Notes: generated from the sequence alone by a model not told the origin. DNA of 64,000 bases from Acidobacteriota bacterium (GCA_039030395.1 JBCCEF010000015.1:47018-111017), one strand, 5' to 3'. Shown: positions 27,401 to 46,761, numbered from the stretch's first letter. Numbers and translations are program-made.

Positions 27401-28420
27401 GGTAGTCTCAACGTCACCGGAAGACATGACGGATTCAAAGTTGTCGAGGATCAGCAGTATTTTTTCGGACTTCAAGCAGTCGGCAAGGTCTTCCACAGAG
27501 CTGCGACTCCTTGAAGTCTCGTCGGCTTCCGGACTCCAGTGGTTTACACCGGCCAGGATGCTCTCCACTAATTCCTCTACTGTGGGTGCGCCGACCAAGG
27601 ACCGCCAGATGACCTTGTCGAAACTATACTGGGCGTTTTTCGCGTAGGTTCTTGCAAGACTTGTCTTGCCCAGTCCTCCCCTACCGAATCGGGCCGATAG
27701 CCTTGTTTTGCCTATTCCCCCGAACCCCAGAACCAGCAGGAGTCGTACGTCGTCTTCATGAACCCAACGCTCAAGAATTCTCAGTTCTTGGTCGCGACCG
27801 AATAACTGTCCATTCTCCGGGATACTGGGCCAGTCTTGGTACTGGCCCGTTGTTCGTTGTCGGTGCAGAGTGAATAGGTCGGCGTTCCCCGCTCCTTCAA
27901 GAGCGACAGCGGTTCTTCCTAGTTCAAAAGCAAATCCAATGTCTTTGTTGTTAGCGATCGCATCGTAAAATGCCACCGAGAATGCACTGGCTGTTCGATC
28001 TCGGACAGCGCTGGTCGTCCCGATGACATATTTTATCGATTGAGCTATGGCAGACGCTTGGTCTGCCGAGTAACACGAGTTCAGTAGAACGCACCTGAGA
28101 CCTGGCGAGAAGAGAGAAAAGAGATCAGCGAGCGCGTCACGATCGACGAGTTTCGCAACTCCATCGTCGTCCTCCAACACAAGGCCGTCGTCATTGCCAT
28201 GCGCGGAGATGTGCAAGTACTCGGGTTGATGCTCCAGAAGCGCGCGCCTTAGATCCATCGTTCGAGTAGCCCATCTCTGTTGGAGGCGCAATCGGCTTCT
28301 TGTGCGAGTCAGACTCTCTTGGATTTCTCGAAATTCTACATCCAAACGCAGGCTCTCTGGACCCGTCGGATTCGCTGCGACGTACAGAATGGTAGGTCGT
28401 TCTTCGTACGACGAAGACAT
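24476..28420 (-). CDS. STAND NTPase: N-terminal CHAT (caspase-like His-Cys protease) domain, NB-ARC/NACHT-type ATPase, C-terminal WD40 beta-propeller array (~14 repeats)
   Basis: CHAT dyad motifs LHISAHGNDDG and CVLLNSCYSADQA. P-loop GFGGIGKT followed by a second GRGGLGKT. Walker B LLILDNFE, then GCVILTSRE and GNPLALE (NB-ARC hhhTSR and GxP motifs). Many WD repeats (...HxxxVxSVxFSPDGxxLxSxSxDxTVRVW...). Confidence 0.8.
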   Translation of the reverse strand: MSSSYEERPTILYVAANPTGPESLRLDVEFREIQESLTRTRSRLRLQQRWATRTMDLRRALLEHQPEYLHISAHGNDDGLVLEDDDGVAKLVDRDALADLFSLFSPGLRCVLLNSCYSADQASAIAQSIKYVIGTTSAVRDRTASAFSVAFYDAIANNKDIGFAFELGRTAVALEGAGNADLFTLHRQRTTGQYQDWPSIPENGQLFGRDQELRILERWVHEDDVRLLLVLGFGGIGKTRLSARFGRGGLGKTSLARTYAKNAQYSFDKVIWRSLVGAPTVEELVESILAGVNHWSPEADETSRSRSSVEDLADCLKSEKILLILDNFESVMSSGDVETTGASSSSFSRLILTLGQLEHRGCVILTSREKPRQIEKLEGDNRPVRTLLLRGLDVYNGKKIFEEIGKFSASDQEWRKLIEFYDGNPLALELAARHIQSVYRGDIREFLNQAELTILDLESLLNWHVSRLSKMELEVLYWLAIDREPVALPELRDDLLSSDARKQLASTVHTLQRLMPLERKRLRIGLQPVLLDYLTRRFVQQIGDEIRLSPSWVGRFIGRKLASEVKREFADDSSFDLLRRFALIKSTSKSYVRRSQRRLILRPIVEWFEEQGLLRDELSSLLVDLLGQCREETREDYVAGNLISLLIEILGDLSNLDLSHLVVRQVDFQSVDLRNTSLAYSTLRQVRFRSQFGHIHCVAMTLDGQTLACGDTKGVIHLWKVEDQEPLAMLEGHVGWIRSVEFSPDGRFLVSASEDQTVRVWALRDYFCEATLIGHQSWVNSAVFDTSGRHVVSGGEDGTVRVWEWRTGTCLKEFGPFGSRTRAVQVIPGASKVISGSSDGTIRVIDLQTGQVERHIEGHSDWISSIDLDKEGATLATAGFDCCARLWELSSSRLVCEFRGHSSWIWDVTLSPDRDLLATASRDRTVKIWSTSSGDCVNTIGNAHDGTVRALKFFPNGDRLASVGQDQALKIWDVHDGSKIGSLRGYSNSIWSIVPGTESGCILSGGDDGIVRKWNIDTGACLESRGSHRGRIWALSATHGLVVSGGSDKRLKIWTETDVVEVARIRAHDDWILSVDLSTSGKLLATGSSNRDPVVKLWSTHTGKLVSAFHGHEDRVHGVAVFEKEGLLVSSGDDSSVRFWSMDERSEVFRVELDFDGVRGKLSPFAVAKSSRLFAVATSSGLAIWDVVRRIESLTISPVSGVPTAVMFDALGKKLFLCTSSGTLEAWDLTSGEVDLVIRSPRNVYQAVCPVGNGDSLCASTATGELDIFELETGNLVKTMIAPRPYEGLRLKGSKGLTRGQQSVLYALGATSEE

Positions 28421-29158
28421 ACTGATAATCTCTAGTTATCGGTGTGACGCGTGAGGAGCCCTATGCGCGCCGCACACTTATCGTCTTAATTGAATTGAAG
28501 AATTAGGAGCGCACTAAAGATTATGCAGCCTCGGTGGCCACCTCGTCAAGATACAGATTCTCAAAGCTCAGGACCTTCGCCAGGAATCACCTTCCCCGAT
28601 CGTTGAACACCGCCCTTCCGACGGCCTCAATCCCACTCGAGTGGATTGCCTTATATTGATAAACTACAGATATTCTGTGAAATATATTATATGGATCAAT
28701 CTGCGAGGAGATTGTCTTCCCACTGACTGGTACTCGGCGAACTGCTCGCATACCGCCCTCGCTCCGGCGAGTTCGCGCTCCTGGGGGCAATCGTCCACCT
28801 GAAGGCCGGAGGGGCAGCCGATGCATCCATCCCGGCGTCCCTGCGTCGTGACGCCGACCTGACCGTAACCCCTCCCCCCTGGACTTCTCGCATCCGCCCA
28901 TTCACTTCCGCTTCGACCCACGGCTCTCCCGCTCCGCTGCGCCTATCTATTTGAGTCCGCTGGGTTAGCAGGCTGAGCTGGGTGTTCGGCCGACAAAAAC
29001 TCGACGCCAGGATCCTCTACAGGCGCCTTGCCTCGGCTGACGAGATCTGCTAAGTTGCTGGGAGTAATTACTTTAAGTCTGCCTCGCACCGTTTCCTCGA
29101 AGTCGACGACGGTTTCCGAAGCAGCGGCTTGGCGGACCGCCTGAAAGAGAGGGACCCG

Positions 29159-31006
29159 ATGTCTCTTCGTTCGCCGCGCCTATGGATGGTCGCCGCCCTG
29201 GCCATGCCAGGGATCTTGATCGCCTTCGGCAGTCCGCAGGTGAGCGCCCGCGCCACCCCGCAGGAACCCAGCTCCGAGATTGAGTCCCCAACCGTAGGGG
29301 AGGTCCCGCCGGAATCCGGCGAGGCTGCCTCCTTGAGCGCCGATGAGGAGCACGCGGCGCTGTTCCTGGAGAACCGCTTTCCGGCAGCCACCACCTGCGC
29401 AACGTGCCACCCGGATCACTACCGCGAGTGGTCCGTTTCGCCACATGCCTATGCCCAGATGAGCCCGGTGTTCAACGCCATGCACGGCACCATCCTGAAG
29501 CTCACCAACGGCACCAACGGCGACTTCTGCATCCGCTGCCACACGCCGGTGGGCATGAATTTGGGCGAACCGGAGTTCATCAGCAACCTGGACCGCCACC
29601 CAACCTCCCGCGAGGGAGTGACCTGCGTGGTGTGCCATCGCATCAACCAGCCCTACGGCAAGCTCTCCGGCCGGCTGGCGATCGTCGAGGGCGATCTTTT
29701 CGAACCGGTCTACGGCCCGAGCGGCAACGACGAGCTCCAGCGGGTGATCGAGAGCGACCAGTTCCGGGTCAACACCGAACGGGGGCGCGCCGGGCGGGCG
29801 ATCCACACCCGGTCGGAGAAGTTCTTCCAAATTTCGACTTCCGGCCTATGCGCCACCTGCCACGATGTGAATCTGGTCAACGGATTCCGCCTGGAGGAGG
29901 CGTTCAGCGAATTCAAGACCTCGCCGGCGGCGGAGAACGGCACCTCCTGCCAGGACTGCCACATGAGCACCGTACCGGGAGTCGATTCGGGCTATGCCCA
30001 GGGACCGGCGGCGGTGGTTGGCGGCAAGGCGACGGCGATCCGCAAGCGGACCGATCATATGTTCATCGGCCCGGACTATTCGGTGGTCCACCCGGGGATC
30101 TTCCCGCACAACCCACAGGCTTCGGAGCTGGCGACGTTGCGCGAGTGGCTGACCTTCGATCACGAAGCCGGTTGGGGCACCGATGCCTTCGAAGCGGAAC
30201 TGCCGGAGGCCTACGAGTTCCCGGACCGCTGGCGGGCCGCCGACGACCGCTATGACGCCCGCGACATCTTGAACGACAACCAGGCGCTGTTGGCCGAGGC
30301 CCACGAACAACGTCGCGAGATCTTGCGCGCCGGCTACCAGCTCGGCAAGCTGGTGGTCGACAGGGCCGACGCGAAGGGCCTGGCTTTCCGGGTGGAAGTG
30401 AAGAACGGCACCGACGGCCACGGCGTGCCCACCGGATTCGACGCCGAACGACTGGTGTTCCTGCACACCACCGTGCGCGACGCCGACGGCCGGGTGGTCT
30501 TCGAGTCCGGCGACCTCGACCCCAACGGCGACGTGCGCGACAGTCACTCGCTGTACGTCCACAACGGAGAGCTGCCGCTCGATCGGCAGCTGTTCAGCCT
30601 GCAGTCGAAGTTCATCACCCGCATGGTGCGGGGGGGCGAACGGGAGCAGGTGCTGGCGGTCAACTATTCGCCGGATCCGCTGCCCTTCCTGCGCCCTTCC
30701 ACCTCCTCCACCATTCTCACCGGCCGGCCGCGGGGCGCCCGCAAGCACAAGCAGAACATCGAACCCTTGGGTAGCCGCTGGGCCGAGTACAAGGTGCCGG
30801 CGTCAGCCCTCGACGGTCGCGGTCCATACACCGTCCACGTCGAGATCAAGGCCGGCATGATCCCGGTGAATCTGATCCACGAGATCAAGGACGTGGGCTT
30901 CGACTACGGCTTGAGCGCCCGGGAAGTGGCCGAGCGGGTGGTCGACGGGCATCTCACCCTGTGGGAGCGCGAACACACCATCGAACTCGACCGACCGGGC
31001 GGCTGA
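29159..31006 (+). CDS. Secreted multiheme c-type cytochrome (5 CxxCH)
   Basis: Signal peptide MSLRSPRLWMVAALAMPGILIAFG. Heme motifs CATCH, CIRCH, CVVCH, CATCH, CQDCH. RBS agagaggga. Confidence 0.8.
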   Translation: MSLRSPRLWMVAALAMPGILIAFGSPQVSARATPQEPSSEIESPTVGEVPPESGEAASLSADEEHAALFLENRFPAATTCATCHPDHYREWSVSPHAYAQMSPVFNAMHGTILKLTNGTNGDFCIRCHTPVGMNLGEPEFISNLDRHPTSREGVTCVVCHRINQPYGKLSGRLAIVEGDLFEPVYGPSGNDELQRVIESDQFRVNTERGRAGRAIHTRSEKFFQISTSGLCATCHDVNLVNGFRLEEAFSEFKTSPAAENGTSCQDCHMSTVPGVDSGYAQGPAAVVGGKATAIRKRTDHMFIGPDYSVVHPGIFPHNPQASELATLREWLTFDHEAGWGTDAFEAELPEAYEFPDRWRAADDRYDARDILNDNQALLAEAHEQRREILRAGYQLGKLVVDRADAKGLAFRVEVKNGTDGHGVPTGFDAERLVFLHTTVRDADGRVVFESGDLDPNGDVRDSHSLYVHNGELPLDRQLFSLQSKFITRMVRGGEREQVLAVNYSPDPLPFLRPSTSSTILTGRPRGARKHKQNIEPLGSRWAEYKVPASALDGRGPYTVHVEIKAGMIPVNLIHEIKDVGFDYGLSAREVAERVVDGHLTLWEREHTIELDRPGG

Positions 31007-32607
31007 CGCACTTGAAAGCGCTGCGCCCCCTGTTTCTCCCAGCGCTTGCGGCGCTGCTCCTTGCGGTCCCCATGGCGGCGGACGGCGTGGGTGCGGCCGG
31101 CGGCGAGAGGAAAACCGATCCCCCGAAGGAAGACTCCGCCGCGGAGCATCCCTCCGAGATGGAAGGCAGCGAGGAAGGCAGCCATGGGGAAGACGCCCAT
31201 GGCGAGGACGGGCATGGTGCCGAAGCGCACGGAGAAGATGCCCATCACGGCAAGAAAGGCGGACACCACAGTAGTCGGCTGACCGACGAGCGCATTCCTC
31301 TGCGGGTCGAGAATGTGCCGGAGCGGCCCAAACCGCTGCTCGAACTGGGCGAGCCGTTCCTCGGCTCCGGCACCTTGAAGCCGGGCTTCCGCTTGCCCAC
31401 CGGCGCCGTTTGGCAGCCTTCGCTGCTGGTGTTCGGAACCTTGCGCACCGCCGCCCAGACCTTCGAGAACCCGGCCGGTCGGGTGAGCGAGGTCGCCACC
31501 CGGCTCGATCTCTTCGCCAACCTCCAGCTCTCCGGCACGGAGCGGCTGGTGGTGGGCTTCCGGCCTTTGGACCAGGACGGCCGATTCACCTCCTACGTCT
31601 TCGAATCGGATCTGCCGGGGGTCGACGAGAGCGACTTCTCGGACGAATTCAACGGCGAGATCACCAGCTTGTTCTTCGAGGGCGACTTCGGCGAGATCTT
31701 TCCCAACCTGTCGCGCGACGACTTTTCGCCGACGGACGTCGGCTTCTCCGTCGGCCGCCAGCCGCTGCTGTTCCAGGAGGGGCTGTTGATCAACGACGCC
31801 ATCGACGGCGTGGGCGTCACCCGCAACACCCTGCAGCCGGCCAGGTCCTCGAACTTCCGGGCGACGCTTTTCTGGGGCTGGAACGATGTCGGGCGCCCTG
31901 GGGTGGGCGGCAATCCGGAGGACGACGACGCGCAGCTCGTCGCCCTGCTGACCTCCGCCGACCTACGCCGTTCGACCATCGACGCGGATCTCGCCTGGGT
32001 GCTGTCGGACACCCGGGGCAACGGGGCTCTGCGCTCCGGCGGCGATCTGATCGCCGGCGGCGTCAGCTTCACCCAGCGCATCGGCCTGTTCAACACGTCT
32101 TTTCGCCTCCTCGGGTCCCTCGCCGACGAAGAGACGGTGAGCGCCGGTGAGGGCTTGCTGCTGTTCTCGGAGGTTTCCCGCACGCCCCATCACACCCACG
32201 ACCTTTTGTACTTCAACACCTTTCTGGCGGTGGACCGCTTCACCTCCGCCGCCCGCGGGCCGGCCACCGGCGGGCCGTTGGGGCGCGCCGGCATTAACTT
32301 CGCCGCCGTCGGCCTGGGGCGCTACGGCGCCGCCCTATCGAGCCAGGCCCAGGACGTGGCCGGCGGCGCCGTGGGCTATCAACGCTTCTTCGACCACACC
32401 CGCAAGCAGCTCATCGTCGAGGTCGGGGCACGAGTGGGGACGGATTCCTCCATCGCCGATGCGATCGCCGCCACCGGCCGCTACCAAGCCGCCGTCGGTC
32501 GCCGTTTCGTCCTGCGGACGGAGGCTTTCGCCGGCCTGCGCCGCGACCCCGGCGGCTCCGACGAGGAACTCTTCGGCGGTCGCTTCGAGGTGCTTCTCAA
32601 GTTTTGA
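30961..32607 (+). CDS. Predicted outer-membrane beta-barrel (porin-like) protein with N-terminal His/acidic repeat region
   Basis: Signal-like LKALRPLFLPALAALLLAVPMAADG. HGED-type His-rich repeats. Amphipathic alternating pattern, and it ends in ...RFEVLLKF (a terminal aromatic residue is typical of outer-membrane barrels). Start ambiguous (GTG 30961 overlapping the upstream gene, or TTG 31012). Confidence 0.55.
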   Translation: MGARTHHRTRPTGRLTHLKALRPLFLPALAALLLAVPMAADGVGAAGGERKTDPPKEDSAAEHPSEMEGSEEGSHGEDAHGEDGHGAEAHGEDAHHGKKGGHHSSRLTDERIPLRVENVPERPKPLLELGEPFLGSGTLKPGFRLPTGAVWQPSLLVFGTLRTAAQTFENPAGRVSEVATRLDLFANLQLSGTERLVVGFRPLDQDGRFTSYVFESDLPGVDESDFSDEFNGEITSLFFEGDFGEIFPNLSRDDFSPTDVGFSVGRQPLLFQEGLLINDAIDGVGVTRNTLQPARSSNFRATLFWGWNDVGRPGVGGNPEDDDAQLVALLTSADLRRSTIDADLAWVLSDTRGNGALRSGGDLIAGGVSFTQRIGLFNTSFRLLGSLADEETVSAGEGLLLFSEVSRTPHHTHDLLYFNTFLAVDRFTSAARGPATGGPLGRAGINFAAVGLGRYGAALSSQAQDVAGGAVGYQRFFDHTRKQLIVEVGARVGTDSSIADAIAATGRYQAAVGRRFVLRTEAFAGLRRDPGGSDEELFGGRFEVLLKF

Positions 32608-34736
32608 TCAGCCAGGCGCTCGTGCCCCCTTCAGCCCGCCGGAAATCCCACCGGCGGGGATCTCCGTGGTTGCGAGGTGCAGGCGTTTTAGTCGCCCTTG
32701 GGACGCCCATTGCGCTGTGGGGCCAGGTCACCGGCGACGAGGAGTTCACCCGCGAACCGCCGGAGAAGATCGTCACCGCCGAGGCCTGCGGCGAATGCCA
32801 CATCTCGGAGTTCGAGGTGTGGAAGAAGACCCCCCACGCCACCGGCTTCAAGACCCTGCACCGCACCGAAGCCGCCGAGGCGATCGCCCAGAAGATGGGA
32901 TTCCGACTGATGAAGCGCGACAGCCTGTGCCTCCAGTGCCACTACACGCCAGAGGTGCGGAACGATCAACTGCGGGCCGTCTCCGGAGTGTCCTGTGAGT
33001 CCTGCCACGGCGCCGGCCGCGACTGGATTGACCTCCACAACGACTACGGTTCGGGGTTCGACCACGCCACGGAACCGGCCGAACACCGCCTAGAGCGCAT
33101 CGCCGCCAGCCGCGCCGCCGGCATGCGCCGACCGTCGGATCTCTACGGCGTCGCAACGAGCTGCATGGGCTGCCACACGGTGCCGAACGAAAAGCTGGTG
33201 AACATCGGCGGCCACACCACCGGCAGCTCCGGCTTTGAGCTGGTTGAGTGGTCCCAGGGCGACATCCGCCACAATTTCTTGCAGTCCTTCTTGACTGGCG
33301 ACGGCACCGAGAACCGCGAGCACACGGCGCCGGAGAAGCGGCCGATGTATGTCCTAGGCCGGCTGGTCGAACTCGAATACGCACTGCGCGCCGCAGCGGA
33401 AGCGTCGGAGCCCGGCACCTACGCCCGCGCCGTCGGCCGACGGGTCAAGACCTCGACTCTCGAGCTGCGGAAGATCGGCCAGATCGCCGAGATCCCGGAG
33501 ATCGGCGCGGCGGTGGCGGTGGTGCGCGGAGTCCAGGTAGTGCCCGGCAACGGCACGGCGCTGCGGGCGGCGGCGGACGAACTGGGCGCCATCGCCCGGC
33601 GCTTCGCCGACGACCGCGAGCCGGCGGTCCAGTTGGCGAGTCTCGATCCGCTGATCCGGGGCGAGGCGATCGCGCTTCCGGAGCCCGAGGTGCAAGTGGC
33701 GGCGGCGACCACGTCGGGGGAAGGCGATCCCGGCACGGTGGCCACGGCGACTTCGGACCCGGGCGATGGCTCCGGCGGCGCTACATCCACAACCGCCACC
33801 GCCAACACCGTCACCGTCAACCCCGGCCGGCCGGTGGTGGGCGAGGCGCGGCGTACCATCCGCCCGTCGGCGCGCCACCGCACCCTCGGCCCCGGCGCTT
33901 GTAGCGGCTGCCACGGCGAGGCCAACGACTGGTGGGCCGGCGACGCCCACTACCGCTCGGCCGAACCTTTCTTCAGCCGCTCGCCGGAGGCGGTACGCAT
34001 CGCCACCCTCTACGGTGTTCCCTTGAACCGTATGGTCACCGGCACCGCCCTGTGCATGAACTGTCACGGCACGGTGGTCTCCGGCAGCGAGAGTTTCGAG
34101 GTGTTCGACGGAGCGAGCTGCGAGAGCTGCCATGGACCGGCGGCAGACTACATCGAAGCCCACAAGGAGGGCGACAAGGCGCTCGGCACCGCGCGGCCCG
34201 GCTACCGCAACGCACTGCGGCTCGGGATGACGGAGCTCCAGAACCTCACCACCCGCGCTGAAACGTGTACGAGCTGCCACTACATCACCGATCGCAGGCT
34301 GCTCTCGTCGGGCCATCCTTCCGGCGAGGGTTTCGACTACGTCGCCGCCATGAACAAGATTCGACACTGGCCGGACCCCGCCGGCGCCGGCACCATCCGT
34401 CCGGCCTTCAACAGCGTCTTGGCGAAGCGCGGGCCGGTGCCGGAGGTGCCCTTGGGCGAGCTGCCGGAAACGGTGCTGGCGGAGGCCACCGCCGCGGCCG
34501 CTTCCACCGTCAACAGCCGCCCCACCGGTGGCAGCTGGAACCGCCCGCGGCCGGCCGGCCCTGCCGCCCGCGGCGCCACCGTTGTCCCCCCGATCACCAG
34601 CCGGAGCCGTGCCCCCGGTACTCCCGTGGAACTGCCGCCCTTCCCCACCATCGATGCGTCGACGACGATCGAAGACACTCTGCTGCTGATCAAGCAGCGG
34701 CTGGAGCTGGTCTACGACGCGGTGCGGCCCCAATAA
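32604..34736 (+). CDS. Multiheme c-type cytochrome (8 CxxCH) with internal Thr/Ser/Gly-rich linker
   Basis: CGECH, CLQCH, CESCH, CMGCH, CSGCH, CMNCH, CESCH, CTSCH. Low-complexity linker at ~33700-33830. TTG start overlapping the upstream stop (TTGA); start uncertain. Confidence 0.8.
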   Translation: MISQALVPPSARRKSHRRGSPWLRGAGVLVALGTPIALWGQVTGDEEFTREPPEKIVTAEACGECHISEFEVWKKTPHATGFKTLHRTEAAEAIAQKMGFRLMKRDSLCLQCHYTPEVRNDQLRAVSGVSCESCHGAGRDWIDLHNDYGSGFDHATEPAEHRLERIAASRAAGMRRPSDLYGVATSCMGCHTVPNEKLVNIGGHTTGSSGFELVEWSQGDIRHNFLQSFLTGDGTENREHTAPEKRPMYVLGRLVELEYALRAAAEASEPGTYARAVGRRVKTSTLELRKIGQIAEIPEIGAAVAVVRGVQVVPGNGTALRAAADELGAIARRFADDREPAVQLASLDPLIRGEAIALPEPEVQVAAATTSGEGDPGTVATATSDPGDGSGGATSTTATANTVTVNPGRPVVGEARRTIRPSARHRTLGPGACSGCHGEANDWWAGDAHYRSAEPFFSRSPEAVRIATLYGVPLNRMVTGTALCMNCHGTVVSGSESFEVFDGASCESCHGPAADYIEAHKEGDKALGTARPGYRNALRLGMTELQNLTTRAETCTSCHYITDRRLLSSGHPSGEGFDYVAAMNKIRHWPDPAGAGTIRPAFNSVLAKRGPVPEVPLGELPETVLAEATAAAASTVNSRPTGGSWNRPRPAGPAARGATVVPPITSRSRAPGTPVELPPFPTIDASTTIEDTLLLIKQRLELVYDAVRPQ

Positions 34737-34796
34737 GAAAACGCAGGGAGAAGACTCGAGCCGTGAGAGGACCCAGGCAGCGATGAGGATCGAGAG

Positions 34797-36479
34797 ATGA
34801 GCGACGCCGACCGCACCCCCGATCTGCCCCCGGGCGACTTCGGCAAGACCATGCTCAAGCGCATGGAGCAGTACCGCGACCGCTGGACCTCGCGCGGCGC
34901 CAACACCGGTCTCGAGTCGCTGTCGGACAAGCTCACGGCGAGAGAACTGCGGCAACTCGAACTCTTCGCCGACTACGACGACCGTTTCCTCGAGCGCATC
35001 AGCCCGGATATCTCGATCGCCCAGTGGAAGGCGGGTTCGGTGCTGTTCGAGGCCGGCGCCTACATCGACCTGGCGTTCTTCATCCTCGACGGCCGGGTGG
35101 AGGTAGCGGTCGAGGAGCTGGTCGCCGGCGCCTCCCAATCGATGCCGATCTTCGACCTGTCGCGGACGGTGATCGGCGATTTGCCGAGCCCGCTGCCGCC
35201 GGCCGACGGCACCACCGTCTTCCGACCGGCGACGGAAGACCGCGAGCCCGGCACCTCGGCACCCACCAAGAGCGAGATCACGTTCCTCGCCAGCATGGAC
35301 TTCGATCTGCCCACCGGCACCGGCGCCGGCCTCGGGACGGGAGAACTCTTCGGGGAGATCGGCGCGATGAGCGGCTGGCCGCAGTCGGTCACCGCCCGCT
35401 GCGCCAGCGATTGTCGATTGATCCAGATCCGAGTGCCGGCGCTGCGTCTGATGAAGCGCAAGTCGAAGGCCCTGGCGGCGCGCCTGGACCGCCTGTACCG
35501 GGAGCGCTCGCTGTCGTCGCAACTGGAGACCACACCGCTCTTTCGCCACTGCAGCCGGAGCTTTCTCCAGCAGCTAGAGCAGAGCGTCGAGCTGGTCTCC
35601 TGCAACCCGGACGAGGTGGTCGTCCGACAGGGCCAGGGGGTGGATGCACTCTTCCTGGTGCGCTCCGGGTTCCTGCGCCTGTCGCAGCGCCTGGGGGAAG
35701 GGGACATCGTGGTCTCCTATCTCTCGAAGGGCATGACCCTGGGCGAGGTGGAACTGCTGACGGAGGGCATCGAAGGCTGGGAGGTGACGGCCTCGTCCGT
35801 CGAGTTTGCGGAGCTGGTGAAGATCCCCCGTGCCACCTTCGACGAGTTGCTCGCGGCCCATCCGGGATTGCAGGACGATCTCTGGCGCAGCGCCACGGAA
35901 CGGATCAAAGAAGCCGGACGGGCGCGCCGGCACATCGGCCGGTCTTCTTTTACCGAGGCGGCGCTGGACAGCGGCCTGGTGCAGGGTTCGAGCATCCTGG
36001 TGATCGATCTCGACACCTGCACCCGCTGCGACGACTGCGTGCGCGCCTGCGCCGACACCCACGGCGGCCGGCCGCGCTTCGTGCGCGAAGGCAGCAAGCA
36101 GAAGAATCTGCTGATCGCCCGCTCCTGCTATCACTGCCGCGACCCGGTGTGCCTGGTGGGCTGTCCCACCGGCGCCATCCACCGGGCCGGAGTGGGCGAC
36201 GTGGTGGCGATCGGCGACGAGCTGTGCATCGGCTGCTCGACCTGTGCCAACAACTGCCCCTACGACGCCATCGTGATGCACGAGACCGGCGAGACCTGGC
36301 CGGAAGACATGGTGCCCACCGGCCTGCGCGGCCAGCCACGGGACGTAGCGAGCAAGTGCGACCTGTGCGTCGACACCGGCCACGACCCGGCCTGCGTCAG
36401 CAATTGCCCCCAGGGCTGCGCCTTCCGGGTGGGTTCCGTGGCGGAGTTGGAAACGCTGCTGGCGGAGGATGATCGGTGA
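34797..36479 (+). CDS. Tandem cyclic-nucleotide-binding (CAP-like) domains fused to a C-terminal multi-cluster 4Fe-4S ferredoxin domain
   Basis: Two cNMP-binding folds (ELFGEIGAMSG... and GMTLGEVELLTEG...). Cys clusters CTRCDDCVRAC, CYHCRDPVCLVGCP, CIGCSTCANNCP, CDLCVDTGHDPACVSNCP. Confidence 0.75.
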   Translation: MSDADRTPDLPPGDFGKTMLKRMEQYRDRWTSRGANTGLESLSDKLTARELRQLELFADYDDRFLERISPDISIAQWKAGSVLFEAGAYIDLAFFILDGRVEVAVEELVAGASQSMPIFDLSRTVIGDLPSPLPPADGTTVFRPATEDREPGTSAPTKSEITFLASMDFDLPTGTGAGLGTGELFGEIGAMSGWPQSVTARCASDCRLIQIRVPALRLMKRKSKALAARLDRLYRERSLSSQLETTPLFRHCSRSFLQQLEQSVELVSCNPDEVVVRQGQGVDALFLVRSGFLRLSQRLGEGDIVVSYLSKGMTLGEVELLTEGIEGWEVTASSVEFAELVKIPRATFDELLAAHPGLQDDLWRSATERIKEAGRARRHIGRSSFTEAALDSGLVQGSSILVIDLDTCTRCDDCVRACADTHGGRPRFVREGSKQKNLLIARSCYHCRDPVCLVGCPTGAIHRAGVGDVVAIGDELCIGCSTCANNCPYDAIVMHETGETWPEDMVPTGLRGQPRDVASKCDLCVDTGHDPACVSNCPQGCAFRVGSVAELETLLAEDDR

Positions 36480-37324
36480 CCGCCGCCAACCGCAGTTCCC
36501 TGGCGCCCAGGCGCGCCGCCGGCCGTCGCTGGCGTCGCGCGTTCGCGGTGGTGGCGGGACTGTGCCTGCTGGTCTTCGCCGTCAACGCTCAGTTCTTCGA
36601 GGTGAACCCCGGCAACCCTTGGGGCCTGGGCTACGGCATCGCCGCGGCGCTGCTGCTGCTGGTGACGGCGCTCTATTCGCTCCGCCGGCGCTTCCCCCGC
36701 TGGGCCACCCGCCGGCGCCTGGGGAGCGCCCGCACCTGGCTCTACCTCCACCTCTACGGCGGCGCCCTGTTCGCTTTGTTGATGCTGATGCACAGCGGTT
36801 TTTCAGTACCCACCGGAGCGGTGACCTGGTGGCTCTGGCTGCTCAGCCTGTGGACCGTGGCGAGCGGCCTCGCCGGCCTCGCCCTCCAGCAGTGGATCCC
36901 CCGGGTGCTCGGCTCGTCCCTCGAAGTGGAGGCGATCTACGAGCGCATTCCCGAGTTGGTCCACGAGCTGAGCGCCGAGGCCGACGCCCTCGCCACCACC
37001 TGTGTGGAACCGGTGCAAACCCTCTACAGCCGCCGCCTAGCGCCGGCCCTGGCGTCGCCGCAGCCGCGTTTGCGCTTCTACTTCGACGCCACCGGCGGCC
37101 GCGACACGGCGCTCAAGGAGGTCGAAGTGCTGCACCCGCTATTGCCGCCGGAAGAGCAGGCGAAGCTGGCCGGGCTGTCCAAGATGTACCGCACCAAAAC
37201 CCAGCTCGACGCCCAGTTCACCCTGCAGCGGGGCCTGCGGTTGTGGCTGTGGGCGCACGTGCCGGTGTCGACGGCGGTGCTGGTGCTGCTGGCGGTGCAC
37301 CTGTTCGCTGTTTGGTACTACTGA
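36476..37324 (+). CDS. Integral membrane protein (4-5 TM) with conserved intramembrane His pairs; candidate b-type heme / ferric-reductase-like subunit
   Basis: GTGA start overlap with the upstream gene. TM helices contain HLYGGALFALLMLMH and WAHVPVSTAVLVLLAVHLF. The function is inference only. Confidence 0.55.
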   Translation: MTAANRSSLAPRRAAGRRWRRAFAVVAGLCLLVFAVNAQFFEVNPGNPWGLGYGIAAALLLLVTALYSLRRRFPRWATRRRLGSARTWLYLHLYGGALFALLMLMHSGFSVPTGAVTWWLWLLSLWTVASGLAGLALQQWIPRVLGSSLEVEAIYERIPELVHELSAEADALATTCVEPVQTLYSRRLAPALASPQPRLRFYFDATGGRDTALKEVEVLHPLLPPEEQAKLAGLSKMYRTKTQLDAQFTLQRGLRLWLWAHVPVSTAVLVLLAVHLFAVWYY

Positions 37325-37349
37325 TCGCTGATCTCGTGGGGAGAGGGAT

Positions 37350-38957
37350 TTGACGAGGAAGGACAGAACGGGCAAAGGCACTTTGGGGGACTCCGGTCTA
37401 CCGGTTGCCAGCAAGTATGTTCAGCCGCCGCATCGGCGTGAACTCCTGTGGGTTGGAGCGGCGGCTCTCGTGATCGTGGCGCTGTTGGCCGCCTGGAGCC
37501 TGCTCCGCCGCGACGGTCGGATGGTTTCGAACGGTCCGCTGTCATCGAACCACGCCAATCTAGAGAACAACTGCGCCGCCTGCCACTCGGGCTTCGCTCC
37601 GGTGAGCAACGAGGCCTGCTCCACCTGCCACGAGAAGCACGGCGACGAACTTGGCGTCTACACCTTTGCCTCGCACTATCTCTACCGGTCCGACGACTTC
37701 CAGCGGGTGGTGCCCTCGCCGGACGAAGAGCCCTGCATCGCCTGCCACACGGAGCACCAGGGCCGCACCGCCGAGATCACCCGGGTGGCGGACGCCCGGT
37801 GCCAAGCCTGCCACGAGTTCTCCCCGTTCAGTGACCACCATCCGGAATTCGCCTTCGCCCAAGCGACGGAGCCGGACTCGAACCCCGGCGACCGTGCCCT
37901 CGCCTTCGCGCACATCCAGCACGTCAAAGAGCTGATTATCCGGCAGAGCCTCGACGCCTCGAATCCCGACGAGGTGGAGCGAACCTGCCTCGCCTGCCAC
38001 AACCCCGAACCGGCCGGCCGTTCCTTCCAGCCGATCGACTTCGACCGCCACTGCGACGCCTGCCACCTCGCCGCCACCGACCGCACGCCGCCGCTGCCGG
38101 TGGCCGGCGAATCCCCTGGGGTGCAAACGCTGCAGGCGATCCAGCTCGCCGGTTTGCCGGGCAGCCGTTGGGCGGACTACGTCAACCCCGGTGAGTTCCG
38201 GCAGCAGGGCGAGCGCATCGTCAAGAGCCCGCTCTACCACCGCGACCCGTGGGTGCTCCACAACCTGCGGCGGCTGCGCCAGCAACTGCTGGGCGACGGC
38301 GGCCTGGCGGACTTGTTGACCGCCTCACCGGACGTGCGGCCGGCCGAGCTGCGCTCGCTCTACGAAGAGGCCATCGCCACCCTCGAAGCCCAGGCCCTCG
38401 ACCTGCGCTCGATTCCCGACCGGGCGGTGCAGCGGGAACTCGAACAGATCGACACGGTCCTCGCCGCCCTCAAGCGACGGTTGGAGGATCCCCACGCGCC
38501 GCTCGACGAAACCGGCTTCCTCCTCGCCCTGACCCCGCCGGCAGATCCGGAATCCGCCGATGCGGAACGCATCCGCACCGTCGCCGAGGCGCTCACCGAA
38601 CCGTGCCGCAATTGCCACACGGTGGAAGACGCCACCATCGTGCGGGTGGAAAACGATCTCGGTACCCTCAAGCGGGCGGAGTTCAACCACCGTGCCCACA
38701 TGCTGCAGCGCGGCTGCCTCGACTGCCACACGGAAATCCCCTTCGCCGAGTTCCTGAATTCGGATGGAGCAGTGGTGCCCGCCGAACTGGACCGGGCGGA
38801 GATCCAGAACCTGCCCAAGATCGCCGTCTGTGGCGAGTGCCACAACGAGAACCTCGCCTCCCAGACCTGTGTCACCTGTCATCTCTTCCACCCGGACACC
38901 GACCGCCGCTCGGAGCTGATCCAATTCGTCAACCCGGAGACCGCCAATGCAGGCTAG
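37350..38957 (+). CDS. Membrane-anchored decaheme c-type cytochrome (10 CxxCH)
   Basis: N-terminal TM anchor (LLWVGAAALVIVALLAAWSLL) then CAACH, CSTCH, CIACH, CQACH, CLACH, CDACH, CRNCH, CLDCH, CGECH, CVTCH. TTG start preceded by ggagaggga. Confidence 0.8.
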   Translation: MTRKDRTGKGTLGDSGLPVASKYVQPPHRRELLWVGAAALVIVALLAAWSLLRRDGRMVSNGPLSSNHANLENNCAACHSGFAPVSNEACSTCHEKHGDELGVYTFASHYLYRSDDFQRVVPSPDEEPCIACHTEHQGRTAEITRVADARCQACHEFSPFSDHHPEFAFAQATEPDSNPGDRALAFAHIQHVKELIIRQSLDASNPDEVERTCLACHNPEPAGRSFQPIDFDRHCDACHLAATDRTPPLPVAGESPGVQTLQAIQLAGLPGSRWADYVNPGEFRQQGERIVKSPLYHRDPWVLHNLRRLRQQLLGDGGLADLLTASPDVRPAELRSLYEEAIATLEAQALDLRSIPDRAVQRELEQIDTVLAALKRRLEDPHAPLDETGFLLALTPPADPESADAERIRTVAEALTEPCRNCHTVEDATIVRVENDLGTLKRAEFNHRAHMLQRGCLDCHTEIPFAEFLNSDGAVVPAELDRAEIQNLPKIAVCGECHNENLASQTCVTCHLFHPDTDRRSELIQFVNPETANAG

Positions 38958-39795
38958 GCCCGCCCGCCTGCTCTGTCAGCGAGGAGCTGCCGGTGGCACT
39001 CGCTTCGACTTCACCGGCCAGGCGACCCTCGGTCGCGCCCCGGAGTGCACGGTGGTGCTGGAGGCCAGCGAGATCTCCAGCCGTCATGCTCGTATCTCCT
39101 GGGACGAGGAAGCCGGGCGCTACCTGCTCGAAGATCTCGGCAGTCTCAACGGCACCGAACTCGACGGCGAACCGGTGAGCGGCGGCGAGACCCTATCCCG
39201 CATGCACGTGATCACCCTAGGCGGGGCCGTCGAGGTCATCTACCAGGGTCCGGAGCTGGTGGCCGCCGCGCCGCCGACGGCTCCCTCAGAGGACTCAGGG
39301 CCGCTCGGCGACACTACCGACAGCCACACGGTGATCAGCGCTGAGCCGCTGGTGCTGCCGGGAAGCTTCGACGGCGACGACACCGGAATGGGCACCCGCA
39401 TCGAAAGCCAGATGGCGCCGCTGCCCTCGGCCTTCGGCACCGCACCACCGATCGAGCACGCGGTACCGGAGCCGACCTGGCGGCTGCGCATCCCCGAGCA
39501 AGGTCCGCAGGACGGTTTCGTCCTCCAGCCGGGAGCGAACCGGGTCGGGCGGCTGCCGAGCTGCGAGATCATGATCGACGGCGCCACCATCTCCCGGCTG
39601 CACGCGGTACTCACAGTGCATCGCGGACGCCTGCGGGTGCGCGACGACGGCAGCCGCAACGGCACTTGGCTCGACGACCAGAGAGTGACCGGGGACGTCG
39701 AAGTCTCCGCCGGTGCCGCCCTGCGGTTCGGCGAGGTCTCGGCGATTCCCCTGGTGGACCTTCCCAATGATTCCGGCCCAACGAATTCGGAGTAG
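38947..39795 (+). CDS. Tandem FHA-domain protein
   Basis: Two FHA cores: FTGQATLGRAPECTVVLEASEISSRHARISWDEEAGRYLLEDLGSLNGTELDGEPV and ANRVGRLPSCEIMIDGATISRLHAVLTVHRGRLRVRDDGSRNGTWLDDQRV. Confidence 0.7.
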   Translation: MQARPARLLCQRGAAGGTRFDFTGQATLGRAPECTVVLEASEISSRHARISWDEEAGRYLLEDLGSLNGTELDGEPVSGGETLSRMHVITLGGAVEVIYQGPELVAAAPPTAPSEDSGPLGDTTDSHTVISAEPLVLPGSFDGDDTGMGTRIESQMAPLPSAFGTAPPIEHAVPEPTWRLRIPEQGPQDGFVLQPGANRVGRLPSCEIMIDGATISRLHAVLTVHRGRLRVRDDGSRNGTWLDDQRVTGDVEVSAGAALRFGEVSAIPLVDLPNDSGPTNSE

Positions 39796-39802
39796 ATCCG
39801 CA

Positions 39803-42079
39803 ATGAACCCGTCCCCCGAAGTGCTCGATCTGCTGGTAGTGGGTGGCGGCCCCGGCGGCACCGCCGCCGCCTTCCGCGCCGCTGAACACGGCCTCAAGGT
39901 GGTGGTCGTCGACTACGACGATCTGATGAAACGCATCCGCGATTACTCGAAGGACAAGTTGATCCTGCCGGGCTTCGGCGGCGGCGACACGATGGCCTTT
40001 CCCAAGGGCGGCCGGCTGATCTCGTCCCTCGCCTTCGAGCCGATCGACAAAGACGAGATGTGTGCCCGCTGGAAGGGCCTCTACCAGGAGCACGGCGTGA
40101 CCGCCCGCACCGGCGTCGAACTGACCGGCCTCGAACGGCGCGACGACGGCAGTTGGCTGGCGCAGGGGTGGGACCATCGCGGTCGCTGCGACGCCACCTT
40201 CACCGCCCGGAATGTCGTTCTCGCCCTCGGTCGTGGGGTACCGCGGCGCTTCGACATTCCCGGCAACACCGACGGCATCGCCTTCCGCCTGGACGACCCC
40301 AACGACTTCGTGGACCGCTCCGCCTGCGTGATCGGCGGCGGCACCTCGGCGGCGGAGGCGGTGATCGCCCTGTCCAACGCCAAGGCGGCGGCCGGCGACC
40401 CGACGGGGGTGTACTGGTCCTACCGCGGCGACCGGATGCCGCGGGTGTCCAAAGCTCTGGCGGAGGTGTTCTTCTCGGCCTACATCGGCAACGGCAACAT
40501 CCGCTACTTCCCGCAGAGCGAGCCGGCCGGGGTGGTGACCGCCGCCGACCGCCGGGAGTACCTGGCGATCCGCACCGACCGGCGGGTGATCGACGGCCGG
40601 CCCAACGAGACCACCCACCTCGAATTCCCCAAGGAGTCCTGCGTCGCCTGCATCGGCGAGGACATTCCGGAACCGCTGCTCGCAGGCATCGGCTGCCCGT
40701 TGATCTGTGGCGGACCGAAGGGGCGGAAAAGAGTGGTCGTCAACCGCTATCTCGAAACCCGTTTGTCCGGCGTCTACGTGGTCGGCGACTTGCTCAGCCA
40801 AGCCTACTTCGAGACCGATGACTTCGACGCCGATCCCGCCGGCTTCCGGGAGGTCAAACACCGCGGCAACATCAAGTCCGCCCTGCGCGACGGCGTGCTG
40901 GTGGCGGACGTGCTGCGGGCGAGGCTCGCCGGCGAGGATCCCGCTGGGATCGCCGTCGAAGATGCGGCGCCGGCGGCCGGCGGCGAGGCGGCGAGAATCG
41001 CCGTCGCCGTCGCCAGCCAAAGGGATAGCCTGGATGACGGCCCGCCGGAAGCCAGTCTCGGGGCGGACCGCGCCGCCGCCGAGGGAGGCGCCATGCTGAT
41101 TCGGATCCTGCCCGGCGGCGTCGAAGGGGAGGAGTTTCCGCTGCCGGAAGGCCAGGTGACCACCCTCGGCCGCGCCGGCTGTGACGCCAACTTCCCGGAC
41201 GACTCCGCCCTGTCCCCGCAGCACGCCTCGATCGTCCACGGCGAGAATGGCTTCTCCCTGCGCGACGACGGCAGCGCCACCGGCCTGTTCCTCGAGCTCC
41301 AGGCGGCGGACAAGCGAGACGTCCGCCCCGGCGACCTGATCCGCTGCGGCCAGCAATTCCTGCGCCTCGACGATGTCGAGGGCGAAGGCGGCGAGGGGAC
41401 GGGGCCCGGCTTCACCCACTTCGACGCCCGCGGTCAGGTGGTCGGTCGCCACCGGCTGGCGGAAGGCACCTCCATCATCGGCCGGCGGGCGCCGGACGTC
41501 ACCCTCGACCGCAAGGACCGCACCCTGTCGCGCCGGCAGCTCGCCCTCACGGTCACCGGCGGCCGCATCCAGATCAAGGACCTGAAGAGCGCCAACGGCT
41601 CCTTCCTGCGAGTGCGCGACGCGGTAGCGATCGACCACGGCGACCGCTTCCGCGCCGGGCAGCAGCGTTTCCTGGTCAGCCTGCGGGACGACCCGGCGCT
41701 GTCCGCCGGAGTCGATCCGGCGAATTCGACCCATGCCTCGCTGCGGCCGGCCGAGGTGGCCGCTGTCGCACCGGCCGCAGGCGCCGGGAACGGCCCGTCG
41801 GTCACCTTTGAAGGCCTCGGCAAGACCATCGCCGTGGCGGCCGGCCAGACCCTCTGCGAGGCAGCCGAAGCGGCCGGCATCCCGATCGTCGCCGAGTGCC
41901 ACTCGGGGATCTGCGGCAGTGACCCGATTCGCATCGTCACCGGCCGGGAGAACCTCGACGCGGAACCGGACGACCAGGAGATCGAGACCCTCGAAGAACT
42001 GTGCGAAGTCGAGCCCGGCCCTTGCCGGCTGGCCTGCAAACTGCGGGTGACGGGACCGGTCACCGTCAAGCTCCTCTAG
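39803..42079 (+). CDS. Fusion protein: FAD/NAD(P)-binding pyridine-nucleotide-disulfide-type oxidoreductase + two FHA domains + C-terminal 2Fe-2S ferredoxin-like domain
   Basis: Dinucleotide fold LLVVGGGPGGTAAAFRAAEHGLKVVVVD and a second CVIGGGTSAAEAV motif. FHA cores (TTLGRAGCDANFPDDSALSPQHASIVHGENGFSLRDDGSATGLFL and TSIIGRRAPDVTLDRKDRTLSRRQLALTVTGGRIQIKDLKSANGSFL). C-terminal Cys-rich ...AECHSGICGSD...PCRLAC. The ferredoxin assignment is tentative. Confidence 0.7.
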   Translation: MNPSPEVLDLLVVGGGPGGTAAAFRAAEHGLKVVVVDYDDLMKRIRDYSKDKLILPGFGGGDTMAFPKGGRLISSLAFEPIDKDEMCARWKGLYQEHGVTARTGVELTGLERRDDGSWLAQGWDHRGRCDATFTARNVVLALGRGVPRRFDIPGNTDGIAFRLDDPNDFVDRSACVIGGGTSAAEAVIALSNAKAAAGDPTGVYWSYRGDRMPRVSKALAEVFFSAYIGNGNIRYFPQSEPAGVVTAADRREYLAIRTDRRVIDGRPNETTHLEFPKESCVACIGEDIPEPLLAGIGCPLICGGPKGRKRVVVNRYLETRLSGVYVVGDLLSQAYFETDDFDADPAGFREVKHRGNIKSALRDGVLVADVLRARLAGEDPAGIAVEDAAPAAGGEAARIAVAVASQRDSLDDGPPEASLGADRAAAEGGAMLIRILPGGVEGEEFPLPEGQVTTLGRAGCDANFPDDSALSPQHASIVHGENGFSLRDDGSATGLFLELQAADKRDVRPGDLIRCGQQFLRLDDVEGEGGEGTGPGFTHFDARGQVVGRHRLAEGTSIIGRRAPDVTLDRKDRTLSRRQLALTVTGGRIQIKDLKSANGSFLRVRDAVAIDHGDRFRAGQQRFLVSLRDDPALSAGVDPANSTHASLRPAEVAAVAPAAGAGNGPSVTFEGLGKTIAVAAGQTLCEAAEAAGIPIVAECHSGICGSDPIRIVTGRENLDAEPDDQEIETLEELCEVEPGPCRLACKLRVTGPVTVKLL

Positions 42080-42099
42080 CAGGCGGCCGAAAGAGCACG

Positions 42100-42245
42100 T
42101 CGCCATGATTTCAGCACGCCGGCTAGAGCTCATTTTCAGGGGGCTCGGCGCCCCCTCAGTCGAGAAGGCCAGCCTTCTCGACTTCACCCCATCCTCGGCA
42201 GCTTCGCTGCCGCCTCGCCCTGTGGGCTCGGAACCCGGGTGGTAC
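42100..42245 (+). repeat. Intergenic structured repeat, copy A (diverged, lacks terminal hairpin)
   Basis: Shares ATGATTTCAGC...TTTCAGGGGGCTCGGCGCCCCCTCA...CTTCACCCCATCCTCGGC...GCCGCCTCGCC...GGCTCGGAAC blocks with copies at 46205, 50752 (reverse) and 49191 (partial). Confidence 0.5.
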
Positions 42246-42292
42246 CATTCGTTGCCTCCCATCGCCACAGCATGTATTTCTCGGAGACCTAG

Positions 42293-43752: not shown

Positions 43753-43753
<1 letters not shown>
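42293..43753 (+). CDS. Response-regulator receiver domain fused to a Hanks-type Ser/Thr protein kinase
   Basis: REC (LLVVDDEEMNRDLL...DLILLDIMMPGIDG...YVVKPLD) then kinase subdomains (GSGTFGSVFRA, ALKVL, HRDIKPANIFL, DFGIAK, APE). Confidence 0.85.
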
Positions 43754-46185
<2,432 letters not shown>

Positions 46186-46204
46186 CAGGTTGCCGAACAA
46201 AGGC

Positions 46205-46390
46205 TTCGCCTTATGATTTCAGCTGCCCTGCTAGCCTTTCTCTCTTTGAGGGGGCTTGGCGCCCCCTCACCTGAAATGAAACGTCTTTTCAGGTTCACCC
46301 CATCCTCGGCGCCTACGGCGCCGCCTCGCCTTTCAGGCTCGGAGCAGGGCACTGAACGGCCATGCTGAGTTTGTCGGTGCCCTGCTAGGA
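46205..46390 (+). repeat. Intergenic structured repeat, copy B (full length, with terminal hairpin)
   Basis: Near-identical, as reverse complement, to 50752-50920. Internal palindrome GGGGGCTTGGCGCCCCCTC and terminal hairpin CAGGGCAC...GTGCCCTG. Confidence 0.55.
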
Positions 46391-46401
46391 GGCTCCAAAA
46401 A

Positions 46402-46761
<360 letters not shown>

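Follow-up and report, generated by a model that had tools for sequence, protein, structure and literature searches.

A set of seven genes, ptdABCDEFG, has been named as an operon encoding a putative porin-cytochrome complex whose function is 'completely unknown' (bioRxiv 10.1101/2023.11.21.568154). The parts proposed there are a pentaheme cytochrome with a beta-sandwich (PtdA), the porin PtdB, a flavin adenine dinucleotide (FAD)/NAD(P) oxidoreductase (PtdC), a periplasmic c554-like tetraheme cytochrome (PtdD), a protein with cyclic nucleotide monophosphate (cNMP) binding and two 4Fe-4S clusters (PtdE), a ferric-reductase-like membrane protein (PtdF) and a decaheme cytochrome (PtdG). The same seven-gene set was found in 20 genomes, the terminal FAD gene was counted as PtdC in Acidobacteriota genomes, and ptdAB was well transcribed in a marine oxygen-deficient zone (bioRxiv 10.1101/2023.11.21.568154). 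No later paper on ptd was found in a literature search. Here we describe a ptd locus in a 64,000-nucleotide stretch of DNA from an Acidobacteriota bacterium (GCA_039030395.1 JBCCEF010000015.1:47018-111017), referred to as the window and numbered from its first letter. The original prediction, made from this DNA before any comparison, had recognised a cytochrome-barrel cluster at 29159-38957 that paralleled MtrAB, PioAB and the Geobacter Pcc systems and might be an uncharacterised conduit type. As an undescribed type this has to be given up, since the cluster is already the ptd operon and Table S7 of the preprint contains Acidobacteriota orthologues, including the loci of Sulfidibacter corallicola (CP071793, here L019) and Acidobacteriota LB_AC_1 (QQVD01000056, here L017) (bioRxiv 10.1101/2023.11.21.568154). 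The system does lack experimental characterisation, as had been held, ptd having been described from sequence only. In our reading, which we consider somewhat better founded than not, the locus encodes one envelope-spanning chain that is fed by NAD(P)H, gated by signals and ends at a periplasmic PtdA on a PtdB channel.

Eight proteins encoded in the window match the S. corallicola locus in the same order, with identities of 74% (PtdA), 55% (PtdB), 48% (octaheme), 60% (PtdE), 49% (PtdF), 46% (PtdG), 27% (double-FHA protein) and 54% (flavoprotein). Because of this collinear match, the window cluster is, by orthology, an Acidobacteriota member of the ptd operon in which PtdA to PtdG are all represented. 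It differs from the canonical operon in that PtdD is doubled to an octaheme, an extra gene encodes a double-FHA protein, and PtdC is a Pyr_redox_2 protein with two FHA domains and Fer2 at the cluster end, not an FNR-type protein between ptdB and ptdD. Neither the octaheme duplication, nor the FHA domains, nor the PtdA–PtdB fusions described below are mentioned in the ptd preprint. In an open reading frame (ORF) survey of the window, the Ptd region comprises eight tightly packed + strand genes at 29159-42079, which are listed here together with one neighbour:

29159-31006, + strand: PtdA, pentaheme cytochrome, 5 CXXCH motifs.
31012-32607, + strand: PtdB, predicted outer-membrane beta-barrel of 531 amino acids, with an N-terminal linker that is disordered and His/acid-rich, and a conserved SRLSDE segment.
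32604-34736, + strand: PtdD-type octaheme, two c554-like tetraheme modules and a Thr/Ser/Gly linker, 8 CXXCH motifs.
34797-36479, + strand: PtdE, predicted to be cytoplasmic, two cNMP-binding domains and a four-cluster ferredoxin module resembling DmsB/NrfC.
36476-37324, + strand: PtdF, inner-membrane protein with five transmembrane segments and four conserved His, predicted di-heme b carrier.
37350-38957, + strand: PtdG, decaheme c-type cytochrome, 10 CXXCH motifs, one N-terminal membrane anchor.
38947-39795, + strand: double-FHA-domain protein (phospho-Thr reader; FHA twice by Pfam), without a ptd letter in the preprint.
39713-42079, + strand: PtdC equivalent, FAD/NAD(P)-binding oxidoreductase of the pyridine-nucleotide-disulphide type, with Pyr_redox_2, two FHA domains and a C-terminal 2Fe-2S domain.
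42293-43753, + strand: receiver domain and Ser/Thr protein kinase (Response_reg and Pkinase by Pfam), tentatively associated regulator.

All 23 CXXCH motifs of the window are confined to the three cytochrome ORFs (among 414 stop-free stretches of at least 80 amino acids in six frames, 79,875 amino acids in total), which excludes chance; the cytochrome-barrel cluster is real. The heme counts of 5, 8 and 10 given by the original prediction were exact, and several of its finer points are also borne out: a Sec-type signal peptide on PtdA, a second gene product ending in ...FEVLLKF, a flexible Thr/Ser/Gly linker in the octaheme, and a single N-terminal hydrophobic helix that would anchor the decaheme in the inner membrane. 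Its overlapping stops and starts are present at the barrel/octaheme (4 nucleotides), PtdE/PtdF (4 nucleotides) and decaheme/FHA (11 nucleotides) junctions, but not between pentaheme and barrel, where 5 nucleotides separate the PtdA stop from the PtdB start at TTG 31012; the remaining non-overlapping junctions have gaps of 25 to 60 nucleotides. This TTG is most likely the true PtdB start, giving a 531-amino-acid product with a clear signal peptide, and that product matches the 531-amino-acid NCBI entry AAF481_14330 (Acidobacteriota bacterium) at 97% coverage. The flavoprotein gene at 39713-42079 probably starts at an ATG near 39803. Two of the predicted details changed. The cluster does not end at 38957, as two further co-directional genes conserved in synteny carry the unit to 42079, and the 'two accessory genes' turn out to be PtdE and PtdF, core redox parts that would provide an iron-sulfur wire and, probably, a di-heme b carrier in the membrane. 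A promoter and terminator scan of 28300-46400 gave no usable operon boundary, with terminator-like sites at shuffled expectation.

Related loci were collected by scanning one genome per species, which gave 203 barrel relatives and 80 loci that were kept. The hosts include Acidobacteriota (with the cultured S. corallicola), Planctomycetota (with Gimesia), Verrucomicrobiota, Bacteroidota, Nitrospirales (Nitrospirota), Gemmatimonadota, Calditrichia (Calditrichota), Omnitrophota and Proteobacteria, Gammaproteobacteria among them. In every one of the 76 loci with upstream sequence, from more than ten phyla, ptdA lies directly upstream of ptdB. This adjacency is new in this analysis, as are at least 44 clusters of proteins in which the two are fused. 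In the Saprospiraceae locus L052 (8072-11314, + strand), PtdA and PtdB form one in-frame ORF of 1080 amino acids, joined through an acidic linker with no hydrophobic segment. With this ORF as query, 46 full-length fusion clusters (90% identity) were retrieved, 935-1291 amino acids long at 86-100% coverage, many of them on megabase contigs and several with 10-42 member sequences; the fused polypeptides of 1030-1290 amino acids (proteins P0243-P0286) come from Saprospiraceae, Planctomycetaceae and further lineages with contigs of 4-7 Mb. A typical junction is ...GHVVVRER.V.L-(40-70 hydrophilic residues, often GHDDGEHED)-SRI(T/S)D..IPLQL..., and at least 44 of the 46 clusters are read as in frame, with a hydrophilic linker of 40-70 amino acids and no internal signal peptide. 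An automated hydrophobicity count passed 16 of the 46 junctions, the segment that it scored taking in part of the PtdA C-terminus. On a contig of 7.27 Mb, one fusion (P0274, L081:10001-13381) is part of a complete cluster, with genes for a kinase and an FHA protein upstream. These natural fusions argue that cytochrome and barrel are physically joined in a complex. Since outer-membrane barrels normally have a periplasmic N-terminus, a fusion with PtdA N-terminal to the barrel would place PtdA at the periplasmic mouth of PtdB.

Among the long ORFs at the related loci, only two, in L052 and L067, share the PtdA reading frame; the long ORFs of L013, L025 and L011 were rejected as frame artefacts of high G+C content. 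The fused ORF of the Marinacidobacterales locus (L067:8123-11395, P0245, 42 member sequences) keeps a segment resembling the PtdB signal peptide, and the sister loci L068 and L078 have separate ptdA and ptdB genes. The fused form there may be genuine, or it may reflect read-through or a recurrent assembly difference. A further match of 1152 amino acids (P0289) comes from a set of eukaryotic proteomes (eukprot g32990.t1) and probably reflects bacterial contamination there.

In an AlphaFold2 model of PtdB built with 40 homologues, residues 137-531 are all-beta, with 19 long strands and one short one. Most 10-residue blocks of this region have a predicted local distance difference test score (pLDDT) of 75-97, and a few loop blocks fall to 45-70. 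The first ~125 residues are disordered; the signal peptide lies here, as do a linker rich in His and acidic residues and a highly conserved segment (SRLSDE.IPL...RPxPLLELG..FLG.G.L.PGF.LPTGAVWQPS). A C-terminal aromatic residue is the usual outer-membrane signal, and nearly all PtdB homologues from the 80 genomes end in Phe or another aromatic residue. From the all-beta model and these C-termini, PtdB is predicted to be an outer-membrane beta-barrel, as first proposed. The modelled strand count is 18-20, and turn parity suggests 20 if both termini are periplasmic. Neither Pfam nor NCBIfam has a family matching the window PtdB, and no Pfam porin family was matched among the 40 homologues at E<=1; by these searches PtdB has no sequence relationship to MtrB or PioB. 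The family itself is large: a profile searched against 1.84 billion cluster representatives found 787 relatives (representatives at 50% identity) at E<=1e-3, 391 of them at E<=1e-30. No Cys and no conserved His occur among the conserved PtdB positions, so the barrel has no obvious cofactor site of its own, and its fold resembles solute channels. The N-terminal linker of the window PtdB is rich in His, Glu and Asp (HGEDAHGEDGHGAEAHGEDAHHGKKGGHH, residues ~30-93, window 31100-31290) and may bind a metal; similar His/acid runs are seen only in some Acidobacteriota PtdB homologues and in many fused forms. That such linkers recur in several lineages where PtdA meets PtdB is a hint of metal handling.

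PtdA has the pentaheme plus Ig-like architecture common to c552 and MccSep. Its only solved relative is the pentaheme c552 of Thermochromatium tepidum (PDB 5ze8), with which it shares 19% identity; the alignment takes in all five heme motifs and the beginning of the beta-sandwich, including the (G)H..PTG motif, and PtdA is ~180 amino acids longer. All 10 PtdA Cys fall in CXXCH motifs. Over 118 sequences that are 49-78% identical to the window PtdA, 152 of 615 positions (25%) are at least 95% conserved. They include a near-invariant DxDxNGD loop in the C-terminal beta-sandwich (residues 452-458, window 30512-30530), where His 421, 463 and 468 are also invariant; together these could form a site for Ca2+ or another metal. 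Such conservation suits an enzyme or a hub with several partners better than a simple relay. No lipobox is present, as the first 60 residues of PtdA and of the octaheme are free of Cys, and all cytochromes of the cluster are predicted to be periplasmic or anchored in the inner membrane.

These properties bear on whether ptd is a true conduit of the Mtr/Pio/Pcc kind, as proposed by the ptd preprint (bioRxiv 10.1101/2023.11.21.568154). Part of PtdA or of the octaheme would then insert into PtdB, and a continuous heme chain would cross the outer membrane and reduce acceptors that are insoluble or outside the cell, for instance Fe(III)/Mn(IV) oxides or humics. At every locus, as in mtrAB and pioAB, the cytochrome gene is directly 5' of the barrel gene, the natural cytochrome–barrel fusions recall Cyc2, and PtdB may have 20 strands, the number predicted for Geobacter OmbB. 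However, PtdA is globular, with one heme per 123 amino acids and a non-heme part of 330 amino acids, unlike the thin MtrA wire, and it scores only 30.6 bits against the DmsE/MtrA family model TIGR03508, with a cut-off of 192 (the octaheme scores 22.1 bits). The lack of Cys and conserved His in PtdB, and of any lipoprotein or extracellular cytochrome in the cluster, also speaks against it, as does a chain that starts at an NAD(P)H-type flavoprotein, not a quinol dehydrogenase, so that energy would not be conserved as in Mtr/Pcc respiration. We therefore regard a threaded conduit as unlikely. A terminal reaction at the PtdB mouth is favoured, because PtdB has no conserved Cys or His and a channel-like fold, and PtdA is globular.

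The remaining cluster proteins could together bring electrons from the cytoplasm to the periplasm. Pfam finds two Cytochrome_C554 stretches in the octaheme, whose halves are homologous to each other (29% identity over 167 amino acids, E 1e-15), and its N-terminal half aligns with the canonical tetraheme PtdD of locus L033 (38% over 278 amino acids, E 2e-59); by these matches the octaheme consists of a PtdD-type tetraheme plus a diverged second copy of that module. PtdE has two cNMP_binding domains and Fer4 families by Pfam, and in NCBIfam it is matched best by DmsB (E 2e-16). Neither a signal peptide nor a transmembrane segment is present. Its four Cys quartets are at residues 408, 444, 477 and 521 (region 408-541, window 36018-36421), as in the four-cluster ferredoxins DmsB/NrfC, and PtdE is predicted to hold up to four [4Fe-4S] clusters. 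In PtdF, H92, H106, H261 and H275 are invariant or nearly so (the pattern is found in 44-45 of 45 homologues), with H92/H106 on one helix and H261/H275 on another, the spacing being 14 residues in each pair and the direction of both helices inside to outside, a pattern suggesting two b hemes stacked across the membrane. PtdF scores 17.2 bits against Pfam DUF4405, below the cut-off of 26.7, and a sequence search found no PDB relative of it; heme b binding has been shown for a DUF4405 protein (PMC11334425). PtdG is conserved in 45 loci, carries one hydrophobic helix (residues 29-47) and matches Cytochrome_C7 and CIII in Pfam; a PDB sequence search returned a weak c7 match only.

The flavoprotein at 39713-42079 contains Pyr_redox_2, two FHA domains and Fer2 by Pfam, and its S. 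corallicola counterpart in the collinear match, QTD51419, is the preprint's PtdC. An FNR-type alternative (FAD_binding_6/NAD_binding_1/Fer2) lies between ptdB and ptdD in Planctomycete, proteobacterial and Nitrospirales clusters (24 loci). This corresponds to two arrangements of the operon. The first, with the window's eight-gene order, occurs in Acidobacteriota, Rhodothermaceae, Calditrichia, Eiseniibacteriota and some Bacteroidota. The second, in Planctomycetota, Verrucomicrobiota, Gammaproteobacteria and Nitrospirales, has a tetraheme in place of the octaheme, no FHA genes, and a membrane-anchored FNR-type protein between barrel and tetraheme. Both retain a flavoprotein of NAD(P)H type that includes a 2Fe-2S domain, in different folds, so that function, not fold, appears to be selected.

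On this domain content and topology, from which the order of carriers, the outward direction, the cofactor occupancy and the PtdA–PtdB geometry are all drawn, the chain that we favour would run as follows. NAD(P)H would be oxidised in the cytoplasm by the PtdC equivalent, with its FAD and 2Fe-2S cluster, and electrons would be handed on to PtdE, which has two cyclic-nucleotide-binding domains and whose [4Fe-4S] clusters, up to four in number, would serve as a cytoplasmic wire. PtdF, with one b heme near each face, would carry them over the inner membrane to the anchored decaheme PtdG, and the c554-like octaheme, as a doubled PtdD, would relay them from PtdG to the pentaheme PtdA, which is envisaged in the periplasm, docked on the periplasmic face of PtdB. 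The terminal reaction would most likely be the reduction of a soluble or chelated acceptor entering through PtdB, making PtdA and PtdB an enzyme-plus-channel pair, not a threaded heme wire; fold relatives of PtdA reduce sulfur or nitrogen oxyanions. Signalling through the FHA domains, the cNMP domains and nearby kinases would switch the flow of electrons. Outward flow is favoured because of the redox span and the membrane potential.

Run in the opposite direction, PtdA would oxidise a periplasmic or external low-potential donor entering through PtdB, and PtdD/PtdG, PtdF and PtdE would reduce cytoplasmic NAD(P)+. Every cofactor type is reversible in principle, lithotrophs (Nitrospirales, Nitrospina) and organisms exposed to sulfide in oxygen-deficient zones have the cluster, and the T. 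tepidum c552 is described as a low-potential cytochrome of a sulfur oxidiser (Chen et al. 2019). Inward electrons would, however, move against the membrane potential and require a donor with a potential of about -320 mV or lower, the cluster offers no proton-coupled or quinone-linked module to drive them, and it is common in ordinary aerobic heterotrophs (Gimesia, Opitutales, Rhodothermaceae, Saprospiraceae). Of all the explanations considered, we give this one the least credence.

It could also be supposed that two functions lie side by side, with PtdA–PtdB as a self-contained enzyme and uptake channel living on general periplasmic carriers and PtdC to PtdG as an unrelated transmembrane redox or signalling module. 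Some gene arrangements are suggestive of this. In Gimesia and Opitutales, ptdD-G lie on the opposite strand upstream of ptdAB, and ptdAB stands alone in several genomes. The loci with ptdAB only, within 10-kb flanks, are L057, L059 and L062 (Omnitrophota) and L032, L038 and L052; there, other donors apparently serve, or the remaining ptd genes lie elsewhere in the genome. Against such a division, all ptd modules are co-localised in more than 40 loci of many phyla despite shuffled order and orientation, the seven-gene set recurs in the 20 genomes of the preprint (bioRxiv 10.1101/2023.11.21.568154), and L081 has a fused PtdAB within its full cluster. We judge separate functions to be quite improbable.

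Several observations weigh against the single NAD(P)H-fed chain. ptdAB occurs without ptdC-G within 10 kb in Omnitrophota and in some Phycisphaeraceae and Planctomycetaceae, so PtdAB can take electrons from elsewhere. The heme domain of PtdA has five conserved non-motif His, enough to make all five hemes bis-His, and an open catalytic heme is therefore not demonstrated. The AlphaFold2 model of PtdA is poor (pLDDT 55 in the heme domain) and reliable only for the c552 match and the beta-sandwich, and the uncertainty of 18-20 strands in PtdB would allow a narrow heme-bearing segment within the barrel. Kinases or cyclases, CHASE2 cyclases included, are found near only ~15% of loci.

The genes around the cluster bear mainly on its regulation. 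The double-FHA protein (Pfam FHA twice, E 6e-33) is syntenic in 20 related loci. Ser/Thr kinases occur within 10 kb in ~11 of the 80 loci, one adjoins the cluster in L081, and an orthologue of the kinase at 42293-43753 also lies 3' of the cluster in L001; regulation by this kinase through the FHA domains is possible, as a tentative proposal. Further downstream, the + strand encodes a hybrid histidine kinase with two receiver domains (43711-46185) and a receiver-like stretch at ~46408-46758. Directly upstream of ptdA, on the - strand, lies a 1314-amino-acid STAND protein with CHAT (caspase-like), NB-ARC and WD40-repeat regions (24476-28420). This segment has a G+C content of 0.53-0.57, against ~0.65 elsewhere, and therefore looks horizontally acquired; it is not conserved beside ptd in other loci.

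The ptd system is widespread, being present in more than ten phyla that include common marine and soil heterotrophs. If the proposed chain is true, it would give cytoplasmic reducing power a quinone-independent, signal-gated route to the outer membrane, and would bear on the redox cycling of metals and of nitrogen or sulfur by organisms that are not counted as electroactive. The PtdA–PtdB fusions make the question of docking on the barrel or sitting inside it directly testable, and cultured hosts of ptd exist in S. corallicola, Roseibium aggregatum and Tistlia consotensis.

The parallel with Mtr, Pio and Pcc systems drawn by the original prediction survives for the pairing of cytochrome and barrel; it fails for family membership, barrel class, surface cytochromes and the energy-coupling module. 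In MtrAB, PioAB and MtoAB, as in ptd, the cytochrome gene is immediately 5' of the barrel gene, and a physical complex is likely. There is, however, no sequence homology, PtdB is modelled at 18-20 strands against 26, its partner is a globular pentaheme and not a decaheme wire of the MtrA/DmsE family, and electrons would be supplied from NAD(P)H via iron-sulfur clusters and b hemes, not from quinol via CymA. From the Geobacter Pcc system (OmbB–OmaB–OmcB), ptd differs in having no lipoprotein or extracellular multiheme cytochrome in its cluster. Two further comparisons were set aside, namely the Verrucomicrobia porin-cytochrome system with an octaheme and a porin of at least 20 strands (PMC5615132), which was compared by description only, and the peat clusters EET1-4, which have other architectures with MtrC/OmcE-like cytochromes.

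Closer to PtdA in architecture is the ExtHIJKL cluster, with ExtI as its porin, in which a pentaheme plus Ig-like protein of the c552 fold class is likewise encoded with a porin-like gene. That protein, MccSep (ExtKL), is a Geobacter periplasmic polysulfide reductase whose active site comprises heme 2 and residues of the Ig-like domain; it is encoded within the ext gene set, and how its substrate crosses the outer membrane is unexplained (bioRxiv 10.1101/2025.11.18.688581). PtdA differs in lacking the defining catalytic Sec/Cys and the Cys that ligates heme 2. Membership of the MccSep family is ruled out, as all PtdA Cys are in heme motifs and the ExtKL/MccSep model NF040886 gives 27.8 bits against a cut-off of 250.

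Cyc2 shares with the ptd fusions, in at least 44 related clusters, a cytochrome that is N-terminal to the barrel in one polypeptide. In the window, by contrast, PtdA and PtdB are separate genes and PtdB has its own signal peptide; the ptd cytochrome part is also much larger (~600 amino acids and five hemes against a small monoheme domain), as is the PtdB barrel, that of Cyc2 having 16 strands. At the inner membrane, PtdF resembles MsrQ/Fre, NADPH oxidase (NOX)/ferric-reductase and DUF4405-type carriers in having two pairs of His on two helices, and in these systems, as proposed for ptd, a cytoplasmic NAD(P)H flavoprotein supplies electrons for a periplasmic acceptor. Because the proposed chain bypasses quinones, it would resemble these systems more than Mtr/Pcc respiration, while differing from MsrQ, NOX and DUF4405 proteins in the PtdE iron-sulfur wire between flavoprotein and PtdF and in having a multiheme chain as acceptor. 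As a tentative extension, which we hold with considerable doubt, PtdA–PtdB may be a second independent cytochrome–porin class after Cyc2, fused in some lineages. In this view, with metal acquisition, defence against oxidants or a burst of reactive species as possible targets, it would form the outer end of a bacterial, two-membrane counterpart of the NADPH oxidases and ferric reductases that would spend cytoplasmic NAD(P)H on an external or periplasmic target under cyclic-nucleotide and phospho-threonine (FHA) control, independently of quinones.

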